From Pristiophorus japonicus (taxonomy: Eukaryota): 64,000 nucleotides of DNA. A program made the translations under genes and the position numbers. The DNA is taken from assembly GCF_044704955.1 (NCBI RefSeq), contig NC_091980.1:259966001-260030000 (forward strand), in the 5' to 3' direction. Below the pieces are notes generated by a model that made no database searches, was not told where the DNA came from, and saw nothing but the letters and a program-made list of their open reading frames with translations. Of the stretch, positions 4,454-47,064 are shown piece by piece. Positions within the stretch are counted from its first letter, which is position 1, and every line of letters begins with the position of its first letter.

Positions 4454-5758
4454 TTACTGGAGTCGGCGGTAACTTGTACAAAGTTCATGGTCCCTAATAT
4501 CTCCCCAACCTCCATTCTTCACGTGTGGAGTGATTGGAGCCAATGGATACATTTTACTTATTGCCATGGTTTCTGGGAACAAGTGCTGTACATTGCTACT
4601 TATAATTCTGTCAATTTTAGAAATTTCAACAGATGGCATGCAAGCTTTCTTGTGATGCATACCACAATCGCCAGCATGGAAAATACGAGGAACTTCACAG
4701 ACCATAACTTTCCAATACCGAGGCAGACAGGATACTGTTAAATACTGTAATGTCCAGTCCCAGTTGTAGTCATCATATTCACAGAAAGTATTTGTGCACT
4801 CTATCATTTTCTGATAGGTGTCTCTAGTCATAGCCATGCCCATGTTGTGTTCTGTTGATCGCCAGGTTTTCACTTCCACCTTATTTGTTTTATCTGTGAA
4901 ATCACTGACACGTGCATACGAACCAATGGACAATAAGTCACAGTCAGGACAACTTTCAGCCTTCAGGCTCCACATATTTTTCAAGACATGATAGAAATCA
5001 GGTGACAAGTAGTGGTCCTCTTCAATGAAGAGCATTAAACCCTTATGATCTTCCAAAACTTTTACCCTTTCCCAAACAAAATGCAACTTCCACCACCAGT
5101 GATGTTTGGTCTGACAGAATTTGGCCTCCCTATAGTGGCCGAATGAATCTGGATATTCAGCATTGATACAGCCCAATTTGAAAGCATTTGCTTTGCTTAT
5201 GTCACGTGGACAGTCTTTAGGATCGTGTCCTGGGAATTCATTGGGATACAACTGGATACTGAATGGAAAAAATATCTGCAACACTTGACAAAAATCGATG
5301 CTAGCTACGATGTGATTGATCTGCGGAGACCAGAAGTCGTGGCTGAATATCAACAAGACGTTTTCTATTCCTTTGGCTTTTCTGAGCGAATCCACGAGCA
5401 TCTGCAGGTATTCTGGCCTGTTGTGCACTTGAATCACCACCACCACATCATTGGGAGGACGTGTCTTTACGGTCTCCTGGTTCCTGACAGTCTGGTCAAA
5501 GTTCAGCTGGTAAACGACTCCGCGGTAAACCAGGGTCAGGTTGTCGACCTCTGGCTTGTCAAACCTGCTCAGCTGAGACTCGTTGGAAACTTTCCGGATC
5601 GCGTTGCCATTGCCAGCTCGCACCGACCTCGAAGTTTCGTCGCCCCTCGGAAAGGCTTCGTTTTTTCTGAACTTTCCGCCCGTCCAGAAGGCAAAGGCGG
5701 CGACCAACATGATGAGCGCCAGGAGAAAGACTTTCCTCTTGTAGATGCGAAACCTCAT
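4454..5758 (-). CDS. MGAT2: Alpha-1,6-mannosyl-glycoprotein 2-beta-N-acetylglucosaminyltransferase (GnT-II, GT16), single-exon CDS, 434 aa
   Basis: Uninterrupted ORF from ATG at 5758 (MRFRIYKRKVFLLALIMLVAAFAFW: short basic tail plus TM helix, type II Golgi enzyme). It carries conserved MGAT2 blocks VVVVIQVHNRPEYL, QTKHHWWWK, IEEDHY (DXD-like), YDDYNWDWTLQ and NGGWGDIRDHELC, ending in TAA at 4454-4456. Intronless as in other vertebrates. Confidence 0.97.
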   Translation of the reverse strand: MRFRIYKRKVFLLALIMLVAAFAFWTGGKFRKNEAFPRGDETSRSVRAGNGNAIRKVSNESQLSRFDKPEVDNLTLVYRGVVYQLNFDQTVRNQETVKTRPPNDVVVVIQVHNRPEYLQMLVDSLRKAKGIENVLLIFSHDFWSPQINHIVASIDFCQVLQIFFPFSIQLYPNEFPGHDPKDCPRDISKANAFKLGCINAEYPDSFGHYREAKFCQTKHHWWWKLHFVWERVKVLEDHKGLMLFIEEDHYLSPDFYHVLKNMWSLKAESCPDCDLLSIGSYARVSDFTDKTNKVEVKTWRSTEHNMGMAMTRDTYQKMIECTNTFCEYDDYNWDWTLQYLTVSCLPRYWKVMVCEVPRIFHAGDCGMHHKKACMPSVEISKIDRIISSNVQHLFPETMAISKMYPLAPITPHVKNGGWGDIRDHELCTSYRRLQ

Positions 5759-5759
5759 G

Positions 5760-6400
5760 TTCAGCGGCGAGGAAGCGACCCCGTCAGTGAAACTGGGCAA
5801 AAGTGGAGGTGACAATAAATCCCGATTAAAAGCGGCGGCCAGTTTCGCCGCAGATCTACCACTCGAATGACAGACACGCCGCGATCGCACACTCGACCGT
5901 TGCCAGCCGGCACCGCGGCTCCCCCCGCAATAACTGACGCCAGGCCCAGGTGTCCGGACAGCCGTCGTGCAGCAATTGCCCGCCCGCCACAAGCCCGGCA
6001 GTCGCTGCCTCTCTGTGCCACCACCTCCCAACAATAGATGCCGGAAGGAAATCTGAAGGCAGCGCGGCGGGTGAGTGGGGGATATCCGTTCACGGAGCGG
6101 CTCCTCCCTGCCTGCAGCGCTTCGCTTCGCTCCGCCTCACATTTAAACCGAGGCCGACGCTACCTCGGCTAACGGCTCCCCAGCACCCCGCCGCCCGGCA
6201 ACCTACCGCGATGCCGCCCGCCGATTGGTGCGTTGCCCGCTTATTCGAACGCGTGCTTGACGCCAGGTTAATTGTGTATGGTCAGCCTAACTGTCCATCA
6301 CCGCCCGCCCCGCCGCTCATTGGTGCTTCTGTGCACCAATGGCGTTGCACCTCAAATTACTGAGACGCTGACCGACAACGTCAGTGCTGCGCAGATCAGA
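5760..6400 (-). promoter_or_regulatory. CpG-island promoter and 5' leader of MGAT2
   Basis: CpG-rich stretch immediately 5' of the ATG, with TATA-like TTTAAAT near 6141-6147, CCAAT boxes near 6224, 6319 and 6336, and GC boxes CCGCCCGCCCCGCC at 6301-6314. Confidence 0.75.
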
Positions 6401-6680: not shown

Positions 6681-7913
6681 TTATAACTTATTTACTGTTT
6701 GGTGATTCGGTATCATGGTCTTCTCTGAAATCTCATCTTCTTGGCTGGGTGAGAGGGTGACCAACCTGTTTCCTCCTCCACCAGTGTCACTCAAAATGGC
6801 GAATGTGCAAGAAAGATAAGTGAATTTTTCCTCTGGAGGAAGGCTGTTGGGCTCAGAAGAAAGCACCACAACAGAAATAACAATACTGAAAACACGCAGT
6901 AGATTTGTCAATCCCATAAATAGAAAAAAAATGTCTCTGCCAAAATGGTATCCTGATGAAGGGTCTACACCCGATTCGTTATCCTGGGGAGGGTAGCCTA
7001 TTTTTCTTTACTGGTTTAATTTTTCCTGCATATATAAGTTTTTTTTCTCCTTTTCTAATCTAATCTCCCTGCCTTTTTTCTTGTCTGGATCTTTCCCAAA
7101 CCTTTTCACTGTCTTTGATATTTACACATTCTTTTTTGTCTTCTTTACCTCCCAGATCATCTAATAGTTACCTGTTTTTTTATTAAGAAATTTGCAGGTT
7201 ATTTAATCGTTCCTATGATTGGAGTATCTCTTCATTCTTTTCACCCAAATCCTCTTTTTCCAACACTTAAAATGAAAAAGGGTTACACCTGAAATGTTCG
7301 ATTCTTTACAGATGCTGGCAGATTTGTAGTGCATTTTCTGTTTTTGCTATTGCTTAGCCAGATTTTAAAGTGTATAGTAGGAACAAACATTTGTTGTAGC
7401 CATACTTTAGTATCCTATACTGAAAACTTCAACAAGCACCAGTATCAACTGTTATACTCATAATAAATGGTGAGACTGAGACTGTAATTTTTTTTAAATT
7501 TCAAAATATACTTTATTCATATAAAAATTTGTACAGTACATTCAAAAGCAGTTCAGTACATTTAGCTGCGGTCAGCAATCCCATACACTACATTTGGGTG
7601 CTGACGGCAGTTCCGTTCGATACATTTCCTTGCTTTTCAGTTCAAGTACAATTCGGTACAATACAGGATACATTGTAGTACATTCAACAAATTACATTAC
7701 TTGTGTCACTATACAGTACACGGAATGGGTGACGGTACATTTACACTTTTCCTTTCCAATGTGCATTACGAAACAGACCTTGCATTGTACATGGCACTAC
7801 ATAGGTGTTTACAGATCATGGTGCTCCATGTACACAAAAAAGAAGTTACAAGTATGGCCCGAGGGGAGTTTTGTACTGATTCTTGCCCCTGGGTTTACCG
7901 TGGCAGAAGGGCT

Positions 7914-10900
7914 TTAAACTGTGGCCCTTCCCCACCATGCCTTTGCGGCGACTGCACCAATTTTAAGTGCGTCCCTCAGCACGTAATCCTGGATCTTAGA
8001 AACATAGAAACATAGAAAATAGGTGCAGGAGTAGGCCATTCGGCCCTTCGAGCCTGCACCGCCATTCAATGAGTTCATGGAAGATTGCGCCAGTCTGCAA
8101 CACGCAGACGTGGACATCTCCTTGCTCTGGAAGACCAGCAAGTTTCGGCAAGACCAAAGAGCGTCTTTGACCGAGTTGATGGCCCTCCAGCAGCAGGTGA
8201 TGTCTGTCTCGGTGTGTGTCCCTGGGAACAGCCCGTAGAGCACAGTCCTGTGTTACGGAGCAGCGCGGGATGAACCTTGACAGCAACCACTGCATCTCTT
8301 TCCAAACCTGCCTTGCGAAGGCGCAATCCTGAAGGAGATGGGTGACAGTCTTGGTGCTTTTGTGACAGCTCTGGCGATGAGACATTCTGCCAAACGAGTT
8401 CGACAGTCTGCTTGGGGAACCACCCGACAGGGTCCACCCTCCTTTCGTAGAGTGTCCAGGACGTTACGTGCTGACCACTTTTATGGTCTTGTGGTCAAAG
8501 GGGTTTTTTGTGAAAAACTTTTCCACGAAGGACAGGTGGGCAGGCATGGTCCAGCTGGTGGGGGCGTTTCGCGGCAGCGTGGCCAGGCCCATCCTTCACA
8601 ACAAAGGGGACAGGTAGATACTCAGCACGTAGTGACACTTGGTGTTTGCGTACCGGGGGTCTGTGCACAGCTTGATGCAGCCGCACACAAAGGTGGCCAT
8701 CAGGATGAGGGCCACGTTCGGAACATCCTTTCCTCCACTGTCCAGAGATTTGTACATTGTGTCTCTGCGGACACGTTCCATTTTGGAGCTCCAGACAAAG
8801 TGGAAGACGGCCCAGGTAACTGCCGCGAGAGATGGGCCAGACCTGTGCCACGTGTAGCAACCCTGAGAGCACCTCACTCCTGATGACCAGGTTCTTTCCT
8901 GCCATGGAGAGGAAGCGCAACTTCCACCATCCCAGTTTTTGCTTCACTTTGGCGATACGCTCTTCCCAGTTTTTGGCCCACGCCCTGTCCACTCCGAACC
9001 ATATTCCCAACACCTTCAGGTAATCTGGTTTAATGGTGAAGGGAATAAAGGATCGGTCGGTCCAGTTGCCAAAGAGCACGGCCTCGCTTTTGCTGCGATT
9101 GACCTTTGCTCCCGAGGCCAGTTCAATCGAGCAATCTGCGGACCAACTGCGGATCCGAGCAAAAGACGGCGACGTCATCCATGTACAGGGAGGTCATGAC
9201 CTGAGCACCTCCGCTGCCTGGGATCGTCACCCCTCTAATGCTCGCATCCCTCCTGATGGACTCGGCAAAGGGCTCGATACAACACACAAACAAGATAGAG
9301 GAGAGAGGACAGCCTTGCCTGACTCCAGATCTGATTGGAAAGCTTTCAGTTTCCCACCCGTTGATTTGAACTGCACTACTGATGTCTGTATAGAGCAGTT
9401 GGACCCAATTGCGGATACCCTCCCCAAACCCCATTTTGGAGAGCACGTCCATCAGGTACATGTGCGATATCCTATCAAAGGCTTTCTTCTGGTCTAAGCT
9501 GATTAAGCAGGTGTCCACCCTCCTGACCCGCACGTAGGCGATCGTATCCCTGAGTAGCGCAAGGCTATCAGAGATCTTCCTGCCTGGGACAGCGCAGGTC
9601 TGGTCCGGGTGAATCACCAGCTCAAGAGCAGACTTGACCCTTTGACAGGATCTTGTAGTCCACATTGAGCAGCGAAATGGGCCACCAGTTTTTGATTTCC
9701 TCCCTCTCCCCCTTCTGCTTGTAGATGAGGGTGATGATGCCTTTCCTCATCGATTCTGACATGCTGCCAGCCAGAAGCATACCCCCGTACACTTCTAGCA
9801 GGTCTGGGCCCATCCAGTCCCACAGAGCCGAATACAACTTGCCGTTGCTTCCGGGAGTTTTATTCATCTCGAAGGACCGTACGGCCTTTGTCAGCTCGTC
9901 CAGAGTTAGCGGGTGATCCAGACTCTCCTGCTCGCTGTCGTCTTAAGACCTCCGAAATAGACGACAGGAAAGACTGGGAGGCCGCGCGGTCTGTGGGCTT
10001 GAAGTCGTACAGCCCGGCATAGAAGGATTTGCTGATCCTCTGCATGTCAGGCTGCAAAGACGTCACAGAACCGTCTTCTTCCTTTAGGCTGGTGATCATA
10101 GAGCTCCCCGTGTACTTTTTGGAAGAAGAAGCGCGAACACGTCTCATCCTGCTCGACGGAGCGGACTCTGGAGCGGAAGATGATCTTGGAGGACTCTGAG
10201 GCAAAGAGCGAGGCTTGCTGGCCCTTCACCTCTTCGAGTTCCTCCGCGACATCGAACCCCAGAGACTGCAGCAGGAGCAGGTTTTGCATACTCTTCTGGA
10301 GTTGGGACAATTCCCTCTGTCTCCCTCTCGCCTCCTGAACACCTTTGAGGATGAAGAACCTCTTGATGTTCGTCTTGATTGTTTCCCACCAGTGCATCGG
10401 GGAATCGCAGAGGGGTTTTACGGTTCTCCAACCTTTGTAATCCCTCTTGAGTTCCTCAACGTTTTCCGGAGTCAACAGTTTCACGTTCAGCTTCCATATC
10501 CCTCTGCCAACTTTCTGGTTTTCCTGTGGGCGACAGTTGGCCAGGAGGAGGCAGTGGTCAGAGAAGAATACCGGCGTGACGTCGGTGGATCTGACCTTGA
10601 GCGTGTGGGACACAAATAGGAAGTCTATTCTGGAACGGACGGACCCGTCTGGTCTTGACCAGGTGTATCTGAGCGGTGCTCCATCTGCAGGGTTGCTGAA
10701 GATGTTGCACAGCTTGGCATCTCTTACCGCATCCATCAGGAGTCTGGACGTGGCGTCCAGTTTGCTGTCGGCTCTGCTGGATCGTCCAGCCGCATCGATG
10801 ATGCAGTTGAAGTCACCGCCCAGAATGACCGGACTGGACGTCGCCAGCAGCAGTGGGAGCTGCTGGGAGGGCCAGCCGCTCGCTTCTGAGAGGCGAGGCA

Positions 10901-11217
10901 TACACGTTAATTAGCCTTAGAGGGGAATTTTTGTACATTACATCTGCTACGAGGAGGCAGCTGCCCACCACCTCCTTAACTTCGGTGATGGTGAAGCGGC
11001 CTCCCCGCAGCAGAATGCCTAGGCCGGAAGACCGGCAATCGTTGCCTCCTGACCATATGGATGGTCCACGGGCCCACCTTTGTGACCACTGTGGCAGACC
11101 GCACTCCTGCAAGAACAGCAGGTCCGCTTTGACCTTGGCGAGGTACCCCAAGGTGGAAACACATTGCGTAGTGGATTTTACGCTACGCACGTTAATAGTA
11201 GCTATTTTAAAATCCAT
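7914..11217 (-). pseudogene. Tx1-like ORF2 (APE endonuclease + reverse transcriptase), frameshifted
   Basis: Starts MDFKIATINVRSVKS at 11217. The fragments 10813-11247, 10047-10901, 9622-9867, 9123-9665 (YMDD), 8596-8877 and 7914-8243 tile a single ORF2. Confidence 0.88.
7997..8080 (-). mobile_element. Short 5'-truncated CR1 3' end nested in the Tx1 ORF2
   Basis: TAGAAACATAGAAACATAGAAAATAGGTGCAGGAGTAGGCC... is the reverse complement of the CR1 tails at 29050-29127 and 46985-47064. Confidence 0.85.
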
Positions 11218-11246
11218 TTTAAAGTTACTGTTTACAGGTACAAACA

Positions 11247-12860
11247 TTACTCTTCAAATAAATCGTCCTTTAAGTCCGAGGTCTGCCCAGTGGCCAGTTC
11301 CGTCATGCATAGGTTTAAACTATACAAGTCTACTGCACCTGGGCTGGCGTGGTCGTCATCCTCTGCCGTGGGAGTGTTTCGACCAGGGGACTGCTGCAGT
11401 GCTGTTATAAGGTCCGTTATGTCCTCTGCACTGTCCTCGCCTGGTGTTGGTGGTTCCCTCTTTTCATCAGTCGTGTCGGTCTCGGGCTGGTGTGCTTCGA
11501 TCGCTGCGTCACTCCCGGTATTCCGGAGGTGGGGTGTGCTGGGCACTTCGCTGCTCCCGTTCTCCCGGAGCTGGTCTGCGTTGGTTGCTTCTTCGCTCCC
11601 AGTGTTCCGGAGCTCATGTGCGCTGGGCACTTCGCTGCTCGCGGGTTCCTGGAGCGGGGCTGCGCCGGTCACTTCACTGCTCCCGGCTGCCTGTGGCTGT
11701 GGGTTAGCGTATTGCCTTTTGTTTTGGTTGCGGTAGTAAGAAGCTTTTTCTCGTCTTTCCTCATCAGACGAGCTGCCGTCGCTGCTGTCTGACGTGGTTG
11801 TTAGCCGCCTCTTCCCTGTTGTTTCCGCAGGGACCCTTGCTCGCCTGTTCTTATGCTTGCGGGCCTTTTTCTTGACGGTCTCCCATCCCGCTTCATCATC
11901 TGCTGTCTCCTCGTTCCTGGACTCGGTGCACTGGGGGAGAGCTTCACTGCTGGCTGCTGGTGTCTCGCAGCTCGCCGTAGCAGGCTTGTCTTCCTCGCCG
12001 ACTTGTTCCGAGTCCACGGGGGCGGTTGCTTCTTTGCCCCGGGCGTTGATCAGGGGGAGGATGTGGGTCTCCTCTGGAGCGTTGTGTTCCTCAGCTTCCT
12101 CCTCCTCTCGTGCAATGTTCTTTGCTGCCTGCGCATAGCTGAAGTTGCGTTTGGGGCAGTTTTTGTAAAGGTGCCCAGCCAGACTACAGAGGTTGCAGCA
12201 CTTGGTCTCCTTACAGTCCTTTGTCTGGTGGCCTTCGTTCTTGCAGTTTCGGCAGATGACAGTTTTGCAGCTTGCCGCCACCTGGCCTGCCTTCCCGCAG
12301 GTGCCGCACACGTTGGGTTGGCCAGCGTACACCAAGTAGCCCCGACTTCCTCCGATGGCGAAGCTGGAGGGGGGGGGGGGGTGCAGAATGGTTCCGCTGG
12401 CGTCCACCTTCATGGTGACCTGGATCTGGCGCTTGCTGGTCCAAATCCCGTGCAAGTCTTTCAAGTCGCTGCTGTTTCCTGCCCCATCGACATACCTGGC
12501 GAGGAAAGTCAGCACATCAATGTGGGGGTTGTACATCTGCACTGTGATAGTGCATCTTCTCTGTGACGGGAGGGTGAACAGTGGCTCCCAAGTCAGCACT
12601 GAGCGCAGCGGTTCACTTGCCTCCTACAGTCCCTTCAGGAACTTCAGGCAGAGGGTGACGGTTCTGAAGATCACATCGAAGTAACCTCTCTTCGGGAGGT
12701 CCTGCAAGGTGAAGACGTTGGCGACTTTCATGCCACATGTTCCCAGCAGGATTTTCTTCACGATAAGGTCCCAGTTGATCGTTGTCTGTCCATCCACTTC
12801 CTTTACCGTCACTCGGATGGTGTTTCGGACGCCCTGGTTCGCTGCTCGGTTGGCCGCCAT
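11247..12860 (-). pseudogene. Tx1-like ORF1 (zinc-knuckle RNA-binding protein), disrupted near 12600-12625
   Basis: MAANRAANQGVRNTIRV... start at 12860. Knuckles CGTCGKAGQVAASC, CRNCKNEGHQTKDC and CNLCSLAGHLYKNC are followed by a long acidic low-complexity tail in ORF 11247-12599. Confidence 0.85.
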
Positions 12861-13095
12861 CTGGGTTGCAGATTCCTCCTTTCGATGTGTATTTTGGCCG
12901 ATGCCTTCAATCTGTTGTGGTGCCAGTCCGGCACCTAGGTGGGCCTCTGGACCCGCCCAATGGTCGGTCGACATGCAGATTTTCCTCTTCTCTCCAATTG
13001 CCGCTTGGCCCAAGCCAAAAGGCCAGAGCCAGCAAAAGTGGAAAAACGAGTTTCTGCAATCAGTCAATTTGCATATGAATGCCCAATCAACCGAG

Positions 13096-13128
13096 ACTAC
13101 ACTCGATCTTAGCCAAAAGGCCGAGAGC
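13096..13128 (-). ncRNA. U2 snRNA 5' fragment (about nt 4-37) forming the head of the retrotransposon; not a functional U2 gene
   Basis: Minus strand GCTCTCGGCCTTTTGGCTAAGATCGAGTGTAGT versus vertebrate U2 ATCGCTTCTCGGCCTTTTGGCTAAGATCAAGTGTAGT: one deletion and one substitution. The rest of U2 is absent. Confidence 0.88.
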
Positions 13129-13188
13129 CAACAAGCATAACCTCCCTGCTCTTGTATTCTATGCCTCGGCTAACAAACCAAGTGTGAA

Positions 13189-15020: not shown

Positions 15021-16082
15021 GGATAAATGGGTCCTTTTCGGGTTGGAAATCGGTGGTTAGTGGTGTGCCACAGGGATCGGTGCTGGGACCACAAATGTTT
15101 ACAATATACATGGATGACCTGGAAGAGGGGACAGAGTGTAGTGTAACAAAATTTGCAGATGACACAAAGATTAGTGGGAAGCGGGTTGTGTAGAGGACAC
15201 AGAGAGGCTGCAAAGAGATTTAGATAGGTTAAGCGAATGGGCTAAGGTTTGGCAGATAGAATACAATGTTGGAAAATGTGAGGTCATCCACCTTGGGGAA
15301 AAAAAAAACAGTAAAAGGGAATATTATTTGAATGGGGAGAAATTACAACATGTTGCAGTGCAGAGGGACCTGGGGGTCCTTGTGCATGAATCCCAAAAAG
15401 TTAGTTTGCAGGTGCAGCAGGTAATCGGAAAGGCAAATTAAATGTTGGCCTTCAGTGCGAGAGGGATGGAGTACAAAAGCAGGGAGGTCCTGCTGCAACT
15501 GTATAGGCTATTGGTGAGGCCGCACCTGGAGTACTGCGTGCAGTTTTGGTCAACTTACTTAAGGAAGGATATACTGGCTTTGGAGGGGGTACAGAGACGA
15601 TTCACTAGGCTGATTCCGGAGATGAGGGGGTTACCTTATGATGATAGATTGAGTAGACTGGGTCTTTACTCGTTGGGAGTTCAGAAGGATGAGGGGTGAT
15701 CTTATAGAAACATTTAAAATAATGAAAGGGATAGACTAGAGGCGGAGAGGTTGTTTCCACTGGTCAGGGAGACGAGAACTAGGGGGCACAGCCTCAAAAT
15801 ACAGGGGAGCCAATTTAAAACCGAGTTGAGAAGGAATTTCTTCTCCCAGAGGGTTGTGAATCTGTGGAATTCTCTGCCGAAGGAAGCAGTTGAGGCTAGC
15901 TCATTGAATGTATTCAAATCGCAGATAGATAGATTTTTAACCAATAAGGGAATTAAGGGTTACGGGGAGCGGGCGGGTAAGTGGAGCTGAGTCCACGGCC
16001 AGATCAGCCATGATCTTTTTGAATGGCGGAGCAGGCTCGAGGGGCTAGATGGCCTACTCCTGTTCCTAATTCTTATGTTCTT
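15021..16082 (+). mobile_element. CR1 LINE 3' fragment
   Basis: RT C-terminal motifs (GVPQGSVLGP, KFADDTK, RPHLEYCVQFW) and tail ...TTCTTATGTTCTT. Confidence 0.9.
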
Positions 16083-22100: not shown

Positions 22101-25100
22101 GGAACCTATGCAGCGAGACAGGGCGAAGTAATATGGAGTCAGAAACAGATGGTAGAAAGGTAAAAAGCAATAGTGGAAGGCCGAGTAAACAAAGGCAAGA
22201 AACAAAAAGGGCCACACTACATCATAATTCTAAAAAGACAAAAGGTGTTAAAAAAAAACAAGTCTGAAGGCTTTGTGTCTTAATGTAAGGAGTATCCGTA
22301 ATAAGGTGGATGAATTATCTGTGCAAATAGATATTAACAGATATGATGTGATTGGGATTACAGAGAGGTGGCTTCAGGATGATCAGGGCTGGGAACTCAA
22401 CATCCAAGGGTATTCAACATTCAGGAAGGATAGAATAAAAGGAAAAGGAGGTGGGGTAGCATTGCTGGTTGAAGAGGAGATTAATGCAATAGTTAGGAAG
22501 GACATTAGCTTGGATGATGTGGAATCTATATGGGTAGAGCTGCAGAACACCAAAGGGCAAAAAACGTTAGTGGGAGTTGTGTACAGACCTCCATACAGTA
22601 GTAGTGATGTTGGGGAGGGCATCAAACAGGAAATTAGGGGTGCATGCAATAAAGGTGCAGCAGTTATCATGGGTGACTTTAATATGCATAGCATTGGGCT
22701 AACCAAACTAGAAGCAATACGGCAGAGGAGGATTTCCTGGAGTGCATAAGGGATGGTTTTCTAGACCAATATGTCGAGGAACCAACTAGGGGTGGGGGGG
22801 GGGGGGGGGGGGGGAGGCCATCTTAGACTGAGTGTTGTGTAATGAGAGAGGATTAATTAGCAATCTCGTTGTGCGAGGCCCCTTGGGGAAGAGTGACCAT
22901 AATATGGTGGAATTCTACTTTAGGATGGAGAATGAAACAGTTAATTCAGAGACCATAGTCCAGAACTTAAAGAAGGGTAACTTTGAAGGTATGAGACGTG
23001 AATTGGCTAGGATAGATTAGCGAATGATGCTTAAGGGGTTTGACAGTGGATGGGCAATGGCAGACATTTAGAGACCGCATGGATGAACTGCAACAATTGT
23101 ACATCCCTGTGTGGCGTAAAAATAAAAAAGGGAAGGTGGCTCAACCGTGGTTATCAAAGGAAATCAGGGATAGTATTAAAGCCAAGGAAGTGGCATACAA
23201 ATTGGCTAGAAATTGCAGTGAACCCAGGGACTGGGAGAAATGTAAAACTCAGCAGAGGAGGACAAAGGGTTTGATTAGGGCAGGGAAAATAGAGTACGAG
23301 AGGAAGCTTGCAGGGAACATTAAAACGGACAGCAAAAGCTTCTGTAGCTATGTAAAGAGAAAAAGATTAGTAAAGGCAAACGTAGGTCCCCTGCAGTCAG
23401 AATCAGGGGAAGTCATCACAGGGAACAAAAAAATGGCAGACCAATTGAACAAGTACTTTGGTTCGGTATTCACTAAGGAGGACACAAACAACATTCCGGG
23501 TATAAAAGGGGTCAGAGGGTCTAGTAAGGAGGAGGAACTGAGGGAAATCCTTATTAGTCGGGAAATTGTGTTGGGGAAGTTGATGGGATTGAAGGCCGAT
23601 AAATCCCCAGGGCCTGATGGTCTGCATCCTAGAGTACTTAAGGAGGTGGCCTTGGAAATAGCGGATGCATTGACAGTCATTTTCCAACATTCCATAGACT
23701 CTGGATCAGTTCCTATGGAGTGGAGGGTAGCCAATGTAATCCCACTTTTTAAAAAAAAGGAGGGAGAGAGAAAACAGGGAATTATAGACCGGTCAGCCTG
23801 ACATCGGTAGTGGGTAAAATGATGGAATTAATTATTAAGGATGAAATAGCAGCGCATTTGGAAGGAGGGGACACGATAGGTCCAAGTCAGCATGGATTTG
23901 TGAAAGGGAAATCATGCTTGACAAATCTTCTGGAATTTTTTGAGGATGTTTCCAGTAGAGTGGACAAGGGAGAACCAGTTGATGTGGTGTATTTGGACTT
24001 TCAGAAGGCTTTTGACAAGGTCCCACACAAGAGATTAATATTGAAAGTTAAAGCACATGGGATTGGGGGTAGTGTGCTGACGTGGATTGATAACTGGTTG
24101 GCAGACAGGAAGCAAAGAGTAGGCAGTGCAGTGGCAGGCAGTGACTAGTGGGGTACCGCAAGGTTCTGTGCTGGGGCTCCAGCCGTTTACATTGTACATT
24201 CATGATTTAGACGAGAGGATTAAATGTAGTATCTCCAAATTTACGTATGACACTAAGTTGGGTGGCAGTGTGAGCTGCGAGGAGGATGCTATGAGGCTGC
24301 AGAGTGACTTGGATAGGTTAGGTGAGTAGGCAAATGCATGGCAGATGAAGTATAATGTGGATAAATGTGAGGTTATTCACTTTGGTGGTAAAAACAGAGA
24401 GACAGACTATTATCTGAAAGGTGACAGATTAGGAAAAGGGGAGGTGCAACGAGACCTGGGTGTCATGGTACATCAGTCATTGAAGGTTGGCATGCAGGTA
24501 CAGCAGGCGGTTAAGAAAGCAAATGGCATGTTGGCCTTCATAGCGAGGGGATTTGAGTACAGGGGCAGGGAGGTGTTACTACAGTTGTACAGGGCCTTGG
24601 TGAGGGCACACCTGGAGTATTGTGTACAGTTTTGGTCTCCTAACTTGAGGAAGGACATTCTTGCTATTGAGGGAGTGCAGCGAAGGTTCACCAGACTGAT
24701 AGGACTGACAAAACAAGAAAGACTGGATCAACTGGGCTTGTATTCACTGGAGTTCAGAAGAATGAGAGGGGATCTCATAGAAACATTTAAAATTCTGACT
24801 GGTTTAGACAGGTTAGATGCAGGAAGAATGTTCCCAATGTTGGGGAAGTCCAGAACCAGGGATCACAGTCTAAGGATAAGGAGTAAGCCATTTAGGACCG
24901 AGATGAGGAGAAACTTCACCCAGAGAGTGGTGAACCTGTGGGATTTTCTACCACAGAAAGTTGTTGAGGCCAATTCACTAAATATATTCAAAAAGGAGTT
25001 AGATGTAAGTCTACTTGAAGCACTACTGTAATGTGGTAGGTATTTATTCAGTGGAACATGTGTTGAAACAAAAGCTGAATTTAGCCAATGGCACAATACT

Positions 25101-28100: not shown

Positions 28101-31100
28101 GAGAGATTACAAAATGCTGCAGTGCCGAGGGACCTGGGGGTCCTTGTGCATGAAACACAAAAAGTTAGTATGCAGGTACAGCAGGTAATCAGGAAGGCAA
28201 ATGGAATGTTGGCCTTTACTGCAAGGGGGAGGGAGTATAAGAGCAGGGAAGTCCTGTTACAACTGTACAGGGTATTGGTGAGACCACACCTAGAGTACTG
28301 CGCACAGTTTTGGTCTCCTTATTTAAGGAGGGATATACTTGCATTGGAGGCAGTTCAGAGAAGGTTCACTAGGTTGATTCCTGAGATGAAGGGGTTGACT
28401 TATGAAGAAAGGTTGGCAGGTTGGAGTTTAGAAGAATGAGAGGTGATCTTATTGAAACATAAAAGATACTGAGGGGGCTTGACAAGGTAGATGCAGAGAG
28501 GATGTTTCCACTCGTGAGGGAATCTAGAACTAGGGGGCAGAGTTTAAGAATAAGGGGTCGCCCATTTAGAACTGAGATGAGGAGCAATTTCTTCTCTGAG
28601 GGCCATAAATCTGTGGAATTCTCTGCCCCAGAGATCTGTGAAGGTTCACCAGACTGATTCCCGGGAAAGGCGGGACTGACCTATCAAGAAAGACTGGATC
28701 AACTGGGCTTGTATTCACTGGAGTTCAGAAGAATGAGAGGGGATCTCATAGAAACGTTTAAAATTCTGATGGTTTAGACAGGTTAGATGCAGGAAGAATG
28801 TTCCCAATGTTGGGGAAGTCCAGAACCAGGGGTCACAGTCTAAGGATAAGGGGTAAGCCATTTAGGACCGAGATGAGGAGAAACTTCTTCACCCAGAGAG
28901 TGGTGAACCTGTGGAATTCTTTACCACAGAAAGTTGTTGAGGCCAATTCACTAAATATATTCAAAAAGGAGTTAGATGTAGTCCTTACTACTAGGGGGAT
29001 CAAGGGGTATGGCGAGAAAGCAGGAATGGGGTACTGAAGTTGCATGTTCAGCCATGAACTCATTGAATGGCAGTGCAGGCTCGAAGGGCCGAATGGCCTA
29101 CTCCTGCACCTATTTTCTATGTTTCTATCTTAATGAATGGCAGAGCAAGCTTGAGGGACCGTAAAGCCTACTCCTGCTCCTATTTCTTATGTTCTTATTC
29201 CAAGATTGGTTACTTAAACTACTTGTCCAGGACAATCCAGCGGAGATAAATTATCGTACCGAAATGTAAAATGATTTTACACAAAGCTTTGAATGCAAAC
29301 TACAGGTTTGCATTAACAAGGTCCATAGGGAGGAGGATCGGTAACAAAAATATTTCAGGCAGTAAATTATTTTCTCAACTGAAAGATTTACCCATAAATA
29401 ATTGATTTGATTATCTAATTCATAGGAAGTTAACTAAATTCACCACAGAAGAAAAATCAGATAAAGATATCCAATGAAGTCTCAATAGAATTTAGGTTGA
29501 CATTAAAATGCTAAATTAACACGTACAGACAATGCATCACTTAAATTTTGGCAAATGTCAAAGGTATTGAGGCATGTTGCATCCACTGCCAGTTACCAAG
29601 ATGTCTAGGCTTTATGCCAACATCAAGTAGGTCTCAACAGAGAAGCGAAGCAAACCACACGATGACCAGAGGAAGTAAATTTCCAAAGATAAACACTTGG
29701 GGCCCAAGTTTCCAAATGATTTGCGCCTGATTTTTAGGAGCAACTGGTGGAGAACGGACTATCTTAGAAATCGCAATTCTCCACATTTTTTTTTCTGCAG
29801 TTCTAGTCAGGTAGAACAGTTCTACTTTGGAACAGAATTTTTTTTTCAAAAGGGGGCGTGTCCGGCCACTGGCGCCTGATTTGAAAGTTTCCACAGTGAA
29901 AACGTACTCCAAACTAACTTAGAATGGAGCAAGTGAAGATTTTGTAGAACTGAAAAAAACTGTTCTACACATTAAAAAATCAGGCGCAGGTTACAAATTA
30001 GGCGTCCAGAACGAGGTGGGGGAAGGGAAGTCATTAAATTCTACAATAAATCCTTATTTATACTTCTACAAATAAATCCAACCTGAATAAACATTTATAA
30101 GCAAAGAAAAGATTAAATAAACCATCTTCCTACCTGTGTGAAAGTGCTTCAGGCACGGAGAATGCTGCAGTCAGCCTGAGGCGCCCGTTCTTCCCGCGGG
30201 GAGGGGGGGGAAAAGAGAGAGGGAGGCGCCCGTTCTTCCTGCGGCGCGGGGGGAGGAGGAGGTGCCCGTTCTTCCCGCGGCGGGGGGGGGGGGGGGAGGG
30301 GGAGAAGGCGTCCGCTCTTCCCGCAGGGGGGGGGGGGGGGGGGGTGGGGGAAGGAGGAGGCGCCTGTTCTTCCCACGGGGGAGGGGGGAAGGAGACAGTG
30401 AGAAGGCTGCAAGTGCTGATGGCAATGTGCTTTTATTAAAAAATGTTCAAAAATTAAACAGCTACAAAGAACTACAAAAATGGCCAAGTGCCAATGTTTC
30501 CTTCACACTGCGCGTGCGCGAACGCTCCAACACGCACGGTTGCCGGCAGGAAAAAACTAATTTAAATAGTACCCGCCCCCTCCCACTTACAAAATCGCCG
30601 CGAGTGTAGGCTCCGCCCCACTGGGCGAGGAGCTGCAGAACGCTCCAGAATCGCGAGTTTTTTTTTTAAGACGCCGTTTTAGGCGTGAAAAACGGGCGCC
30701 CAGCTCCGAGGGGCAACCGTTTTTTATCGTGTGGAAACTTGGGCCCTATATGTGGTGTGAATTAACCATTAATACATTTGTCTCATAAAATTCCCATTTA
30801 CTTTTGTGAGCACAGGTAGAACGTCCAAAATCTAGAGTTCTAAAAACCGGAACTGTCCGAAAACTGGACATTGTGCAGATTGCAAGAGTTGAAGTCCGGA
30901 AATATTTCCCGAAAACTGGACTTTTAAGCTGTACATACCTTTCTCCAAGCAGGAATCCAGAAAAATACGCAGCCCGGCACGGCCTCGAGGTTGCCGTCGG
31001 ATGTAATGCTCCAAAATTCGGAAATTCATGAAAGTCGGCCCAAGGGTTTCCGGATTCGGGACGTCAGATTTTCTCCGAAATCCGGAAATACCCGAAAACC

Positions 31101-44301: not shown

Positions 44302-47064
44302 GAGACGTGGCTCCAGGATGATCAGGGCTGGGAACTCAACATCCAAGGGTATTCAACATTCAGGAAGGATAGAATAAAAGGAAAAGGAGGTGGGGTAGCA
44401 TTGCTGGTTAAGGAGGAGATTAAGGCAATAGTTAGGAAGGACATTAGCTTGGATGATGTGGAATCTATATAGGTAGAGCTGCAGAACACCAAAGGGCAAA
44501 AAACGTTAGTGGGAGCTGTGTACAGACCTCCAAACAGTAGTAGTGATGTTGGGGAGGGCATCAAACAGGAAATTAGGGGTGCATGCAATAAAGGTGCAGC
44601 AGTTATAATGGGTGACTTTAATATGCACATAGATTGGGCCAACCAAACTGGAAGCAATACAGTGGAGGAGGATTTCCTGGAGTGCATAAGGGATGGTTTT
44701 TTAGAGGAACCAACTAGGGGGGAGGCCATCTTAGACTGGGTGTTGTGTAATGAGAGGGGATTAATTAGCAATCTCGTTGTGCGAGGCCCCTTGGGGAAGA
44801 GTGACCATAATATGGTGGAATTCTGCATTAGGATGGAGAATGAAACAGTTAATTCAGAGACCATGGTCCAGAACTTAAAGAAGGGTAACTTTGAAGGTAT
44901 GAGGCGTGAATTGGCTAGGATAGATTGGCGAATGATACTGAAAGGGTTGACTGTGGATGGGCAATGGCAGACATTTAGAGACCGCATGGATGAACTACAA
45001 CAATTGTACATTCCTGTCTGGCATAAAAATAAAAAAGGGAAGGTGGCTCAACCATGGCTATCAAGGGAAATCAGGGATAGTATTAAAGCCAAGGAAGTGG
45101 CATACAAATTGGCCAGAAATAGCAGCGAACCCGGGGACTGGGAGAAGTTTAGAACTCAGCAGAGGAGGACAAAGGGTTTGATTATTGCAGGGAAAATGGA
45201 GTACGAGAAGAAGCTTGCAGGGAACATTAAAACGGATTGCAAAAGTTTCTATAGATATGTAAAGAGAAAAAGGTTAGTAAAGACAAACGTAGGTCCCCTG
45301 CAGTCAGAATCAGGGAAAGTCATAATGGGGAACAAAGAAATGGCGGACCAATTGAACAAGTACTTTGGTTCGGTATTCACTAAGGAGGACACAAACAACC
45401 TTCCGGATATAAAAGGGGTCGGAGGGTCTAGTAAGGAGGAGGAACTGAGGGAAATCCTTATTAGTCGGGAAATTGTGTTGGAGAAATTGATGGGATTGAA
45501 GGCCGATAAATCCCCAGGGCCTGATGGACTGCATCCCAGAGTACTTAAGGAGATGGCCTTGGAAATAGTGGATGCATTGACAGTCATTTTCCAACATTCC
45601 ATTGACTCTGGATCAGTTCCTATGGAGTGAAGGGTAGCCAATGTAACCCCACTTTTTAAAAAAGGAGGGTGAGAGCTAACAGGGAATTATAGATCGGTCA
45701 GCCTGACATCGGTAGTGGGTAAAATGATTAAATCAATTATTAAGGATGTCATAGCAGTGCATTTGGAAAGAGGTGACATGATAGGTCCAAGTCAGCATGG
45801 ATTTGTGAAAGGGAAATCATGCTTGACAAATCTTGTGGAATTTTTTGAGGATGTTTCCAGTAGAGTGGACAAGGGAGAACCAGTTGATGTGGTATATTTG
45901 GACTTTCAGAAGGCTTTCGACAAGGTCCCACACAAGAGATTAATGTGCAAAGTTAAAGCACATGGGATTGGGGGTAGTGTGCTGACAGGAAGCAAAGAGT
46001 AGGAGTAAATGGGGACTTTTCAGAATGGCAGGCAGTGACTAGTGGGGTACCGCAAGGTTCTGTGCTGGGGCCCCAGCTGTTTACACTGTACATTAATGAT
46101 TTAGATGAGGGGATTAAATGTAGTATCTCCAAATTTGCGGATGACACTAAGTTGGGTGGCTGTGTGAGCTGCGAGGAGGATGCTATGAGGCTGCAGAGCG
46201 ACTTGGATAGGTTAGGTGAGTGGGCAAATGCATGGCAGATGAAGTATAATGTGGATAAATGTGAGGTTATCCACTTCGGTGGTAAAAACAGAGAGACAGA
46301 CTATTATCTGAATGGTGACAGATTAGGAAAAGGGGAGGTGCAACGAGACCTGGGTGTCATGGTACATCAGTCATTGAAGGTTGGCATGCAGGTACAGCAG
46401 GCGGTTAAGAAAGCAAATGGCATGTTGGCCTTCATAGCGAGGGGATTTGAGTACAGGGGCAGGGAGGTGTTGCTACAGTTGTACAGGGCCTTGGTGAGGC
46501 CACACCTGGAGTATTGTGTACAGTTTTGGTCTCCTAACCTGAGAAAGGACATTCTTGCTATTGAGGGAGTGTAGCGAAGGTTCACCAGACTGATTCCCGG
46601 GATGGCGGGACTGACCTATCAAGAAAGACTGGATCAACTGGGCTTGTATTCACTGGAGTTCAGAAGAATGACAGGGGACCTCATAGAAACATTTAAAATT
46701 CTGACGGGGTTAGACAGGTTAGATGCAGGAAGAATGTTCCCAATGTTGGGGAAGTCCTGAACCAGGGGAAAGTCTAAGGATAAGGATAAGCCATTTAGGA
46801 CCGAGATGAGGAGGAACTTCTTCACCTAGAGAGTGGTGAACCTGTGGAATTCTCTACCACAGAAAGTTGTTGAGGCCAATTCACTAAATATATTCAAAAA
46901 GGAGTTAGATGAAGTCCTTACTACTAGGGGGATCAAGGGGTATGGCGAGAAAGCAGGAATGGGGTACTGAAGTTGCATGTTCAGTCATGAGCTCATTGAA
47001 TGGCGGTGCAGGCTAGAAGGGCCGAATGGCCTACTCCTGCACCTATTTTTTGTGTTTCTATGTT
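44302..47064 (+). mobile_element. CR1 LINE ORF2 (APE/RT) copy with 3' tail, close paralog of 22370-25005
   Basis: Long ORF 44509-45630, KFADDTK RT motif, near identity with the 22-25 kb copy, tail TTTCTATGTT. Confidence 0.93.

Follow-up and report, generated by a model that had tools for sequence, protein, structure and literature searches.

A dead Keno-related LINE with a U2 snRNA-derived head outside U2 genes in the cartilaginous fish Pristiophorus japonicus

A 64,000 nt stretch of the Pristiophorus japonicus genome (NCBI RefSeq assembly GCF_044704955.1, contig NC_091980.1, positions 259,966,001 to 260,030,000 of the forward strand), hereafter called the window, contains a 5.6-kb retrotransposon of the non-LTR class (LTR, long terminal repeat) on the minus strand, which runs from 13128 to 7488 in window coordinates. 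The copy is full-length, has two open reading frames (ORFs), and opens with a piece of U2 small nuclear RNA (snRNA). Its reverse transcriptase (RT) is related to those of Keno-type long interspersed nuclear elements (LINEs), which insert into U2 genes. A first-pass annotation, made without database searches, had described a Keno-like element of the Tx1 group outside any U2 gene; here, we present the structure, flanks and relatives of this element and weigh how it came by its U2 head.

Features of Tx1-type elements are present, namely an ORF1 with RNA-binding domains and zinc knuckles, an ORF2 with an N-terminal apurinic/apyrimidinic (AP) endonuclease and an RT, and an A tail (Table 1). Pfam detected PF23057 (E-value 7.8e-11), PF23058 (7.1e-16) and PF00098 (0.0019, below its cut-off) in ORF1, and PF03372 (4e-11), PF00078 (1.7e-23) and, weakly, PF13966 (0.019) in ORF2. 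ORF1 is interrupted by a single in-frame stop at 12626-12624; its low-complexity half holds an 84-base imperfect tandem duplication (11486-11684). ORF2 aligned with its closest full-length relative, protein P0139, at 72% identity over 1079 residues, in about ten frame segments with about nine frame changes. Further, ORF2 has taken up a CR1 3′ end, whose 80 bases agree with 29052-29131 at 97.5% identity and resemble eight more places in the window. The element described at first pass was confirmed; we add that the copy is dead, given the stop in ORF1, the fragmented ORF2 and the CR1 insert.

Table 1. Features of the element and its surroundings, in window coordinates (UTR, untranslated region).
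Feature	Position	Strand	Details
U2 snRNA-derived head	13096..13128	-	U2 nt 4-37, carrying a single deletion and a single substitution; Rfam alignment
Second, internal U2 stem-loop I motif	13013..13030	-	Repeat family D1; 99 bases behind the head motif
5′ UTR	12861..13095	-	Between U2 head and ORF1 start codon
ORF1, 537 codons	11247..12860	-	Two ZCCHC3-type RNA-binding domains and zinc knuckles; Pfam, ORF list
ORF2	7914..11217	-	AP endonuclease, RT, C-terminal zinc-binding region; Pfam, P0139 alignment
CR1-type repeat 3′ end	8001..8080	-	Later insertion into ORF2, which resumes on both sides
3′ UTR	7488..7913	-	AATAAA at 7517-7512; A tail of eight A at 7495-7488
3′ flank 9-mer	7475..7483	-	8/9 to head/UTR junction 13098-13090; 7/9 to U2 nt 35-43
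CR1 coding scrap, immediately 5′ of the head	13134..13167	-	82% over 34 bases to 15461-15494, E-value 5e-5
MGAT2, single exon	5758-4454	-	Pfam, E-value 5.8e-162

The head comprises 33 bases. In the Rfam alignment, U2 nt 7 is deleted, nt 29 is substituted, and the match ends after nt 37. This bears out the first-pass annotation, which let the element open with U2 nt 4-37 before switching to sequence of its own, and which had read a gcttctc>gctctc deletion and A29G in the head. The match to the U2 family scored 33.4 bits with an E-value of 0.00095 (11 kb searched against 4227 families), and chance similarity was rejected on this E-value. With no more than the first fifth of U2 present, the score stays under the gathering score of 46. 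Position 37, where the head ends, is the insertion position of Keno as quoted in PMC6136364.

Besides the head, a second U2-like motif was found in the 5′ UTR, which is absent from the first-pass annotation and newly reported here. It matches U2 nt 8-23 at 12 of 16 ungapped positions, a level attained by 6 of 1500 background stretches. One 12-base word is identical in head and internal motif and occurs only there, i.e., twice in the 64 kb. Further, the two have 5′ letters in common where both differ from U2, which fits a head borne by the element and leans towards its inheritance. Such a motif is not general among the relatives, as only one of ten stretches tested (L097) reached 12/16. L097 is a U2-inserted element of invertebrate type with an internal copy of U2 stem I (4684-4712) about 90 bases behind its U2 flank.

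Keno elements are followed at their 3′ end by U2 from about nt 38 and preceded by the start of the U2 gene with its upstream region. At the present locus neither flank has this form. A comparison of U2 nt 35-192 (taken from locus L088) with the whole window yielded a best E-value of only 1.8, in agreement with the earlier statement that the 3′ flank lacks a U2 remainder. On the 5′ side, U2 nt 1-3 are unmatched and the head is adjoined by a short CR1 fragment, as had been noted at first pass; this scrap shares its reading-frame motif with the CR1 coding stretch at 15461-15494. Hence, the element lies outside any U2 gene, as previously claimed. An insertion into a CR1 copy whose halves would flank the element was rejected, since no continuation of the scrap was found in the 3′ flank within 2 kb beyond one weak match (E-value 0.095).

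When the first 46 bases at the tail end were compared with the 469 bases upstream of the head, no exact target site duplication of at least 8 bases was found, and an exact duplication outside the head was rejected on this comparison. The former statement that no duplication is evident stands to this extent, but it passed over an imperfect match of 8/9 bases between the junction of head and UTR (13098-13090) and the 3′ flank (7483-7475), the latter being separated from the A tail by four extra bases. In 200,000 trials with random pairs over 7x7 registers, 0.6% did as well, in a test that was post hoc. The 9-mer at 7475-7483 is thus a candidate for an imperfect duplication or a U2-like target. 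Its likeness to U2 itself (7/9 bases) was equaled by 4.8% of 6000 random 24-mers, or 17.8% when gaps were allowed; the resemblance of the 3′ flank to the U2 target is at background level and the site at most faintly U2-like.

The proteins closest to the element come from sharks and rays, which points to a cartilaginous-fish host. For ORF1, these were from Pristiophorus (90% identity in the best stretch), Heterodontus (68%) and Cetorhinus (58%), and for the RT from Mobula (81%). A protein-based scan fetched 158 loci of animal-type LINE DNA (80 on metagenome and 78 on genome contigs), 22 of which carry snRNA or 5S sequence. In L001 and L004, the element is preceded by U2 nt 1-26 or 1-27, and past the tail U2 starts again at nt 38 or 35 (in L001 in particular, 1-26 before and 38 onward after). 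Taken together, U2 resumes at nt 35-39 after the tail in the U2-inserted loci L001, L004, L082, L095 and L120. L082, L095 and L120 show the 3′ junction, and L097 shows the 5′ junction. By their flanks, these six loci are Keno-type, but all are remote from the element of the window.

For the RT phylogeny, 87 candidates were reduced by six loci (frames below 330 residues) and one protein (short overlap) to 80 rows, which were analyzed with FastTree; IQ-TREE was applied to 47 of these, picked to keep every branch, and gave a tree of the same shape. The window RT and the shark and ray rows were united with a support of 100/100 (IQ-TREE, 47 rows), and this branch was joined with amphibian and further rows at 100/99. 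All are part of a 25-row vertebrate group (100/99), which also contains a teleost branch with the U2-inserted L001. Thus, the element is Keno-related, at sister level and not nested among the teleost rows. This upholds the Keno-like ancestry proposed at first pass, for which an RT phylogeny had been suggested as a check; no named non-Keno Tx1 family is among the rows. Identity of the window RT to L001 and to protein BAD04856 is 44-45% over about 380 columns. The window RT also groups with Danio P0071, which is named “transposon TX1 uncharacterized 149 kDa protein”, in a tree without named reference families. BAD04856 and BAC82621 are presumably KenoFr1 and KenoDr1, which the literature search did not confirm; the source study of Keno is reportedly that of Kojima and Fujiwara from 2004. 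U2- and U1-inserted invertebrate elements fall outside the 25-row group, where the tree does not resolve their placement, and since U2-inserted elements occur there as well, the lineage may have targeted U2 for a long time. In sum, the element is Keno-related, yet fails to show the 3′ junction that defines Keno.

U1 genes are targets as well among the Tx1-type relatives. In L083, U1 nt 1-27 precede the element (70-96) and the 3′ part of U1 follows its tail (6021-6097); a U1 3′ junction was also found in L081 (10008-10137), L086 (7283-7405) and L022 (3829-3932). In IQ-TREE, two of these loci have a U2-inserted sister, namely L082 for L083 (100/100) and L004 for L081 (99/96), which suggests more than one target switch between U2 and U1. 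No report of this was among the papers listed in a literature search. In a second group of relatives, the sequence after the element is U1, starting at about nt 3 (L006, 6094-6146; L088, 4749-4912; L092, 7722-7885), within a U1-5S-U2 array that also holds the U2-inserted L095, L120 and L097. Among distant relatives, L106, L110-L112, L123 and L124 sit in arrays whose 436-base unit includes a U5-like piece, and L087 sits in a tRNA array. The records L081-L124 bear titles of bacterial metagenome-assembled genomes; given the LINEs and spliceosomal snRNA arrays in them, the presence of animal host DNA is likely.

A Keno-related element outside U2 genes with a U2 head has been in print for crocodilians since 2015 (Kojima, 2015; PMC4494074). 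As described there, the Tx1-Mar families cluster with Keno but prefer a Mariner element and lie outside U2 genes, and four snRNA heads are given, U2 in Tx1-11_Crp and U1 in Tx1-2_Crp, Tx1-2B_Crp and Tx1-4_AMi. Going by this description, the present element resembles Tx1-Mar, and Tx1-11_Crp in particular, in its Tx1 type, its grouping with Keno, its position outside U2 genes and its snRNA head (U2 nt 4-37 in this copy). In contrast, Tx1-Mar has crocodilian hosts and prefers Mariner-N4_AMi, whereas our element is known from one insertion site. No shark case of such an element was found among the papers listed in searches of the open-licence literature, to which Repbase entries do not belong. Keno itself is characterized as a U2 gene-specific LINE of the Tx1 clade (PMC4494074, PMC4640811, PMC6136364) and occurs, according to Kojima and Jurka (2015; PMC4640811), in frogs, fish, lancelet and hydra. 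It shares with the element two ORFs, an AP endonuclease (PF03372), an RT related to U2-inserted elements and the U2 position at which the U2 sequence ends, but our element has neither a U2 remainder after the tail nor the U2 upstream region.

Two further systems are similar in part. SINEU is described as growing by serial addition of snRNA pieces, and serial 5′ addition or duplication of U2 pieces in the SINEU-1 subfamilies (PMC4494074) is what the internal motif suggests here. SINEU is short and non-coding, however, and membership was rejected for an element of 5.6 kb with ORF1 and ORF2. Reptile Utopia copies are reported outside U2 at short U2-like sites (PMC4640811); these weakly specific elements likewise descend from U2-targeting ones and insert elsewhere than in U2. 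With its restriction-like endonuclease and single ORF, Utopia differs from the present element, which has an AP endonuclease and two ORFs, and membership was rejected on these grounds.

Based on these results, we consider it probable, though well short of certain, that the U2 head was already part of the RNA which was copied into this site, and that the copy belongs to a Keno-related Tx1-type LINE of cartilaginous fishes. The lineage would descend from elements inserting about 37 bases into U2 genes. A source copy in a U2 gene may have been read from the U2 promoter, giving one RNA that opens with U2 nt 1-37; alternatively, the source copy may have inherited the head from an earlier round, and the internal motif could then be a relic of an earlier head. 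This copy was inserted outside U2, at a site at most faintly U2-like, and the same may hold for the family. Target-primed reverse transcription, an established mechanism, would have reached the 5′ end of the RNA and so have copied the head. The CR1 scrap may be a further 5′ addition or a flank left by a deletion. Subsequently, the copy decayed and took up the CR1 3′ end; lacking an upstream U2 promoter, it would have no transcription starting at its head. The leading pair of mechanisms consists of read-through from a U2 gene and fixed capture of the U2 5′ end. The letters common to head and internal motif tend to favor inheritance over ongoing read-through. The high identity of the head to U2 (31/34 positions, nt 4-37) would in any event erode slowly and does not discriminate between the two.

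Several observations weigh against a head that came with the RNA. U2 nt 1-3 have no match in the head, and the U2-inserted loci keep a 5′ part of nt 1-21 to 1-27, not 1-37; an end at nt 37 is therefore no general rule for the 5′ junction. In the tree, the node joining the window branch to the teleost branch alone has a support of only 89/86, the rows were selected by similarity to the query, the insertion targets of most rows are unread, and named Tx1L, Kibi, Koshi, Dewa, Mutsu or Tx1-Mar rows are not included. A U2 fragment already present at the site, together with a target duplication, would account equally well for the 8/9 match between junction and 3′ flank. Finally, the family is read from one copy only: the best of the 158 fetched loci reaches 51% identity to the RT query and none is shark or ray DNA, and a 20-base pattern spanning the junction of head and UTR had 0 matches in the metagenome contigs.

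Nor did other searches retrieve a second head. The viral contigs scanned held no relative of the element, and a protein search with the translated 5′ UTR and first domain gave nothing at an E-value of 0.001 among 125 candidates. Hints of a recurring head come from stored proteins. In the gene model P0004 of the basking shark Cetorhinus (XP_078387188), whose ORF1 is 58% identical to that of the window, the U2 5′ end is present as a peptide (10/11 residues) before ORF1, and in P0219 it stands ahead of a related ORF1 with 11/11 residues. Among 295 stored proteins these are the only two with the U2 peptide (scores 48 and 54; next best 34), and only 29 of the 169 ORF1-type proteins have an N-terminal extension long enough to show it, so that 2 of 29 do. 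Both may nevertheless be ordinary Keno copies inside U2 genes. Five Heterodontus sequences of 56-288 Mb carry ORF1 models that share 90-96% identity with P0002, and in Cetorhinus, four near-identical ORF1 models lie on four sequences. Judged from these gene models, the sister families look dispersed, with which several U2 loci would fit as well.

A bolder version is that sharks and rays harbor a Keno-derived LINE lineage off U2 genes in which the U2 5′ end is fixed, inherited, re-acquired and functional as a stem-loop. The 5′ UTR would then hold two U2 stem-I motifs because the U2 5′ end was acquired more than once. This remains tentative and, in our opinion, unlikely. If true, the stem-loop would serve the element itself, for example in protein binding, capping or, during second-strand synthesis, pairing with a U2-like target.

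The first-pass annotation, whose interpretation held as to Keno-like ancestry and off-target site, had missed two rivals, a template switch confined to one copy and a pre-existing truncated U2 copy. We regard both as improbable, and to a similar degree. In the former, the RT would have reached the 5′ end of the element RNA, switched to U2 snRNA and possibly moved on to a CR1 RNA, and the head would exist in this copy only. The unrelated CR1 scrap right before the head, without continuation in the 3′ flank, is what serial switching leaves, and repeated 5′ additions of snRNA are documented for SINEU-2 copies and L1 (PMC4494074). Against this, the head ends precisely at the Keno site, and the internal motif together with the U2 peptide of P0004 suggests that U2 pieces recur in the lineage. 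The coincidence at nt 37 is only mild evidence, since the added pieces of SINEU-2 are described as ending up to 22 bases apart (PMC4494074).

In the latter case, the head would be flank: a Keno-type element with intact U2 preference would have inserted at the end of a pre-existing, 3′-truncated U2 retrocopy and duplicated about nine bases. Retrocopies of this form are reported as common in mammals (PMC5322556). The single difference in the 8/9 match is a CpG-type change, and the rejoined flanks would read U2 to nt 37 followed by a few faintly U2-like bases. Nevertheless, the supposed duplication is set off from the A tail by four bases, the duplication test was devised after the match had been seen, and the likeness of the 3′ flank to U2 is non-significant. 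Moreover, this explanation leaves the letters common to head and internal motif unexplained. Very improbable, finally, is that an ordinary Keno copy entered a U2 gene and that later deletion or rearrangement removed both the promoter side and the 3′ side: the flanks indeed do not rejoin into one recognizable sequence and the copy is old enough for about ten lesions, but two deletions would be needed, each ending within a few bases of the element ends, no other U2 piece lies in the window, and the neighborhood is that of a single-copy gene, MGAT2, and not an snRNA array such as those of L088 or L092.

MGAT2 is encoded on the same strand, the end of the element being about 1.7 kb upstream of it. 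Just upstream of the CR1 scrap and pointing towards the element, a 188-base stretch with TG...CA ends (13376-13189, minus strand) contains a TATA-like word (13297-13291) and AATAAA (13253-13248) and is single copy in the window; we take it to resemble a solo LTR. Elsewhere in the window, two long CR1-type copies (22363-25011 and 44302-46916) are 92% identical over 2.67 kb, besides many shorter CR1 pieces.

For the dead copy, no host function is suggested. The meaning of the finding is modest: cartilaginous fishes join the lineages in which LINEs related to Keno bear a head of snRNA origin at sites other than snRNA genes. Should the head turn out to be fixed across copies, these families would offer a tractable system for a question left open for SINEU and Tx1-Mar, namely the transcription of an element whose head has no internal promoter, and the order in which a site-specific LINE loses its target and captures the 5′ end of that target.

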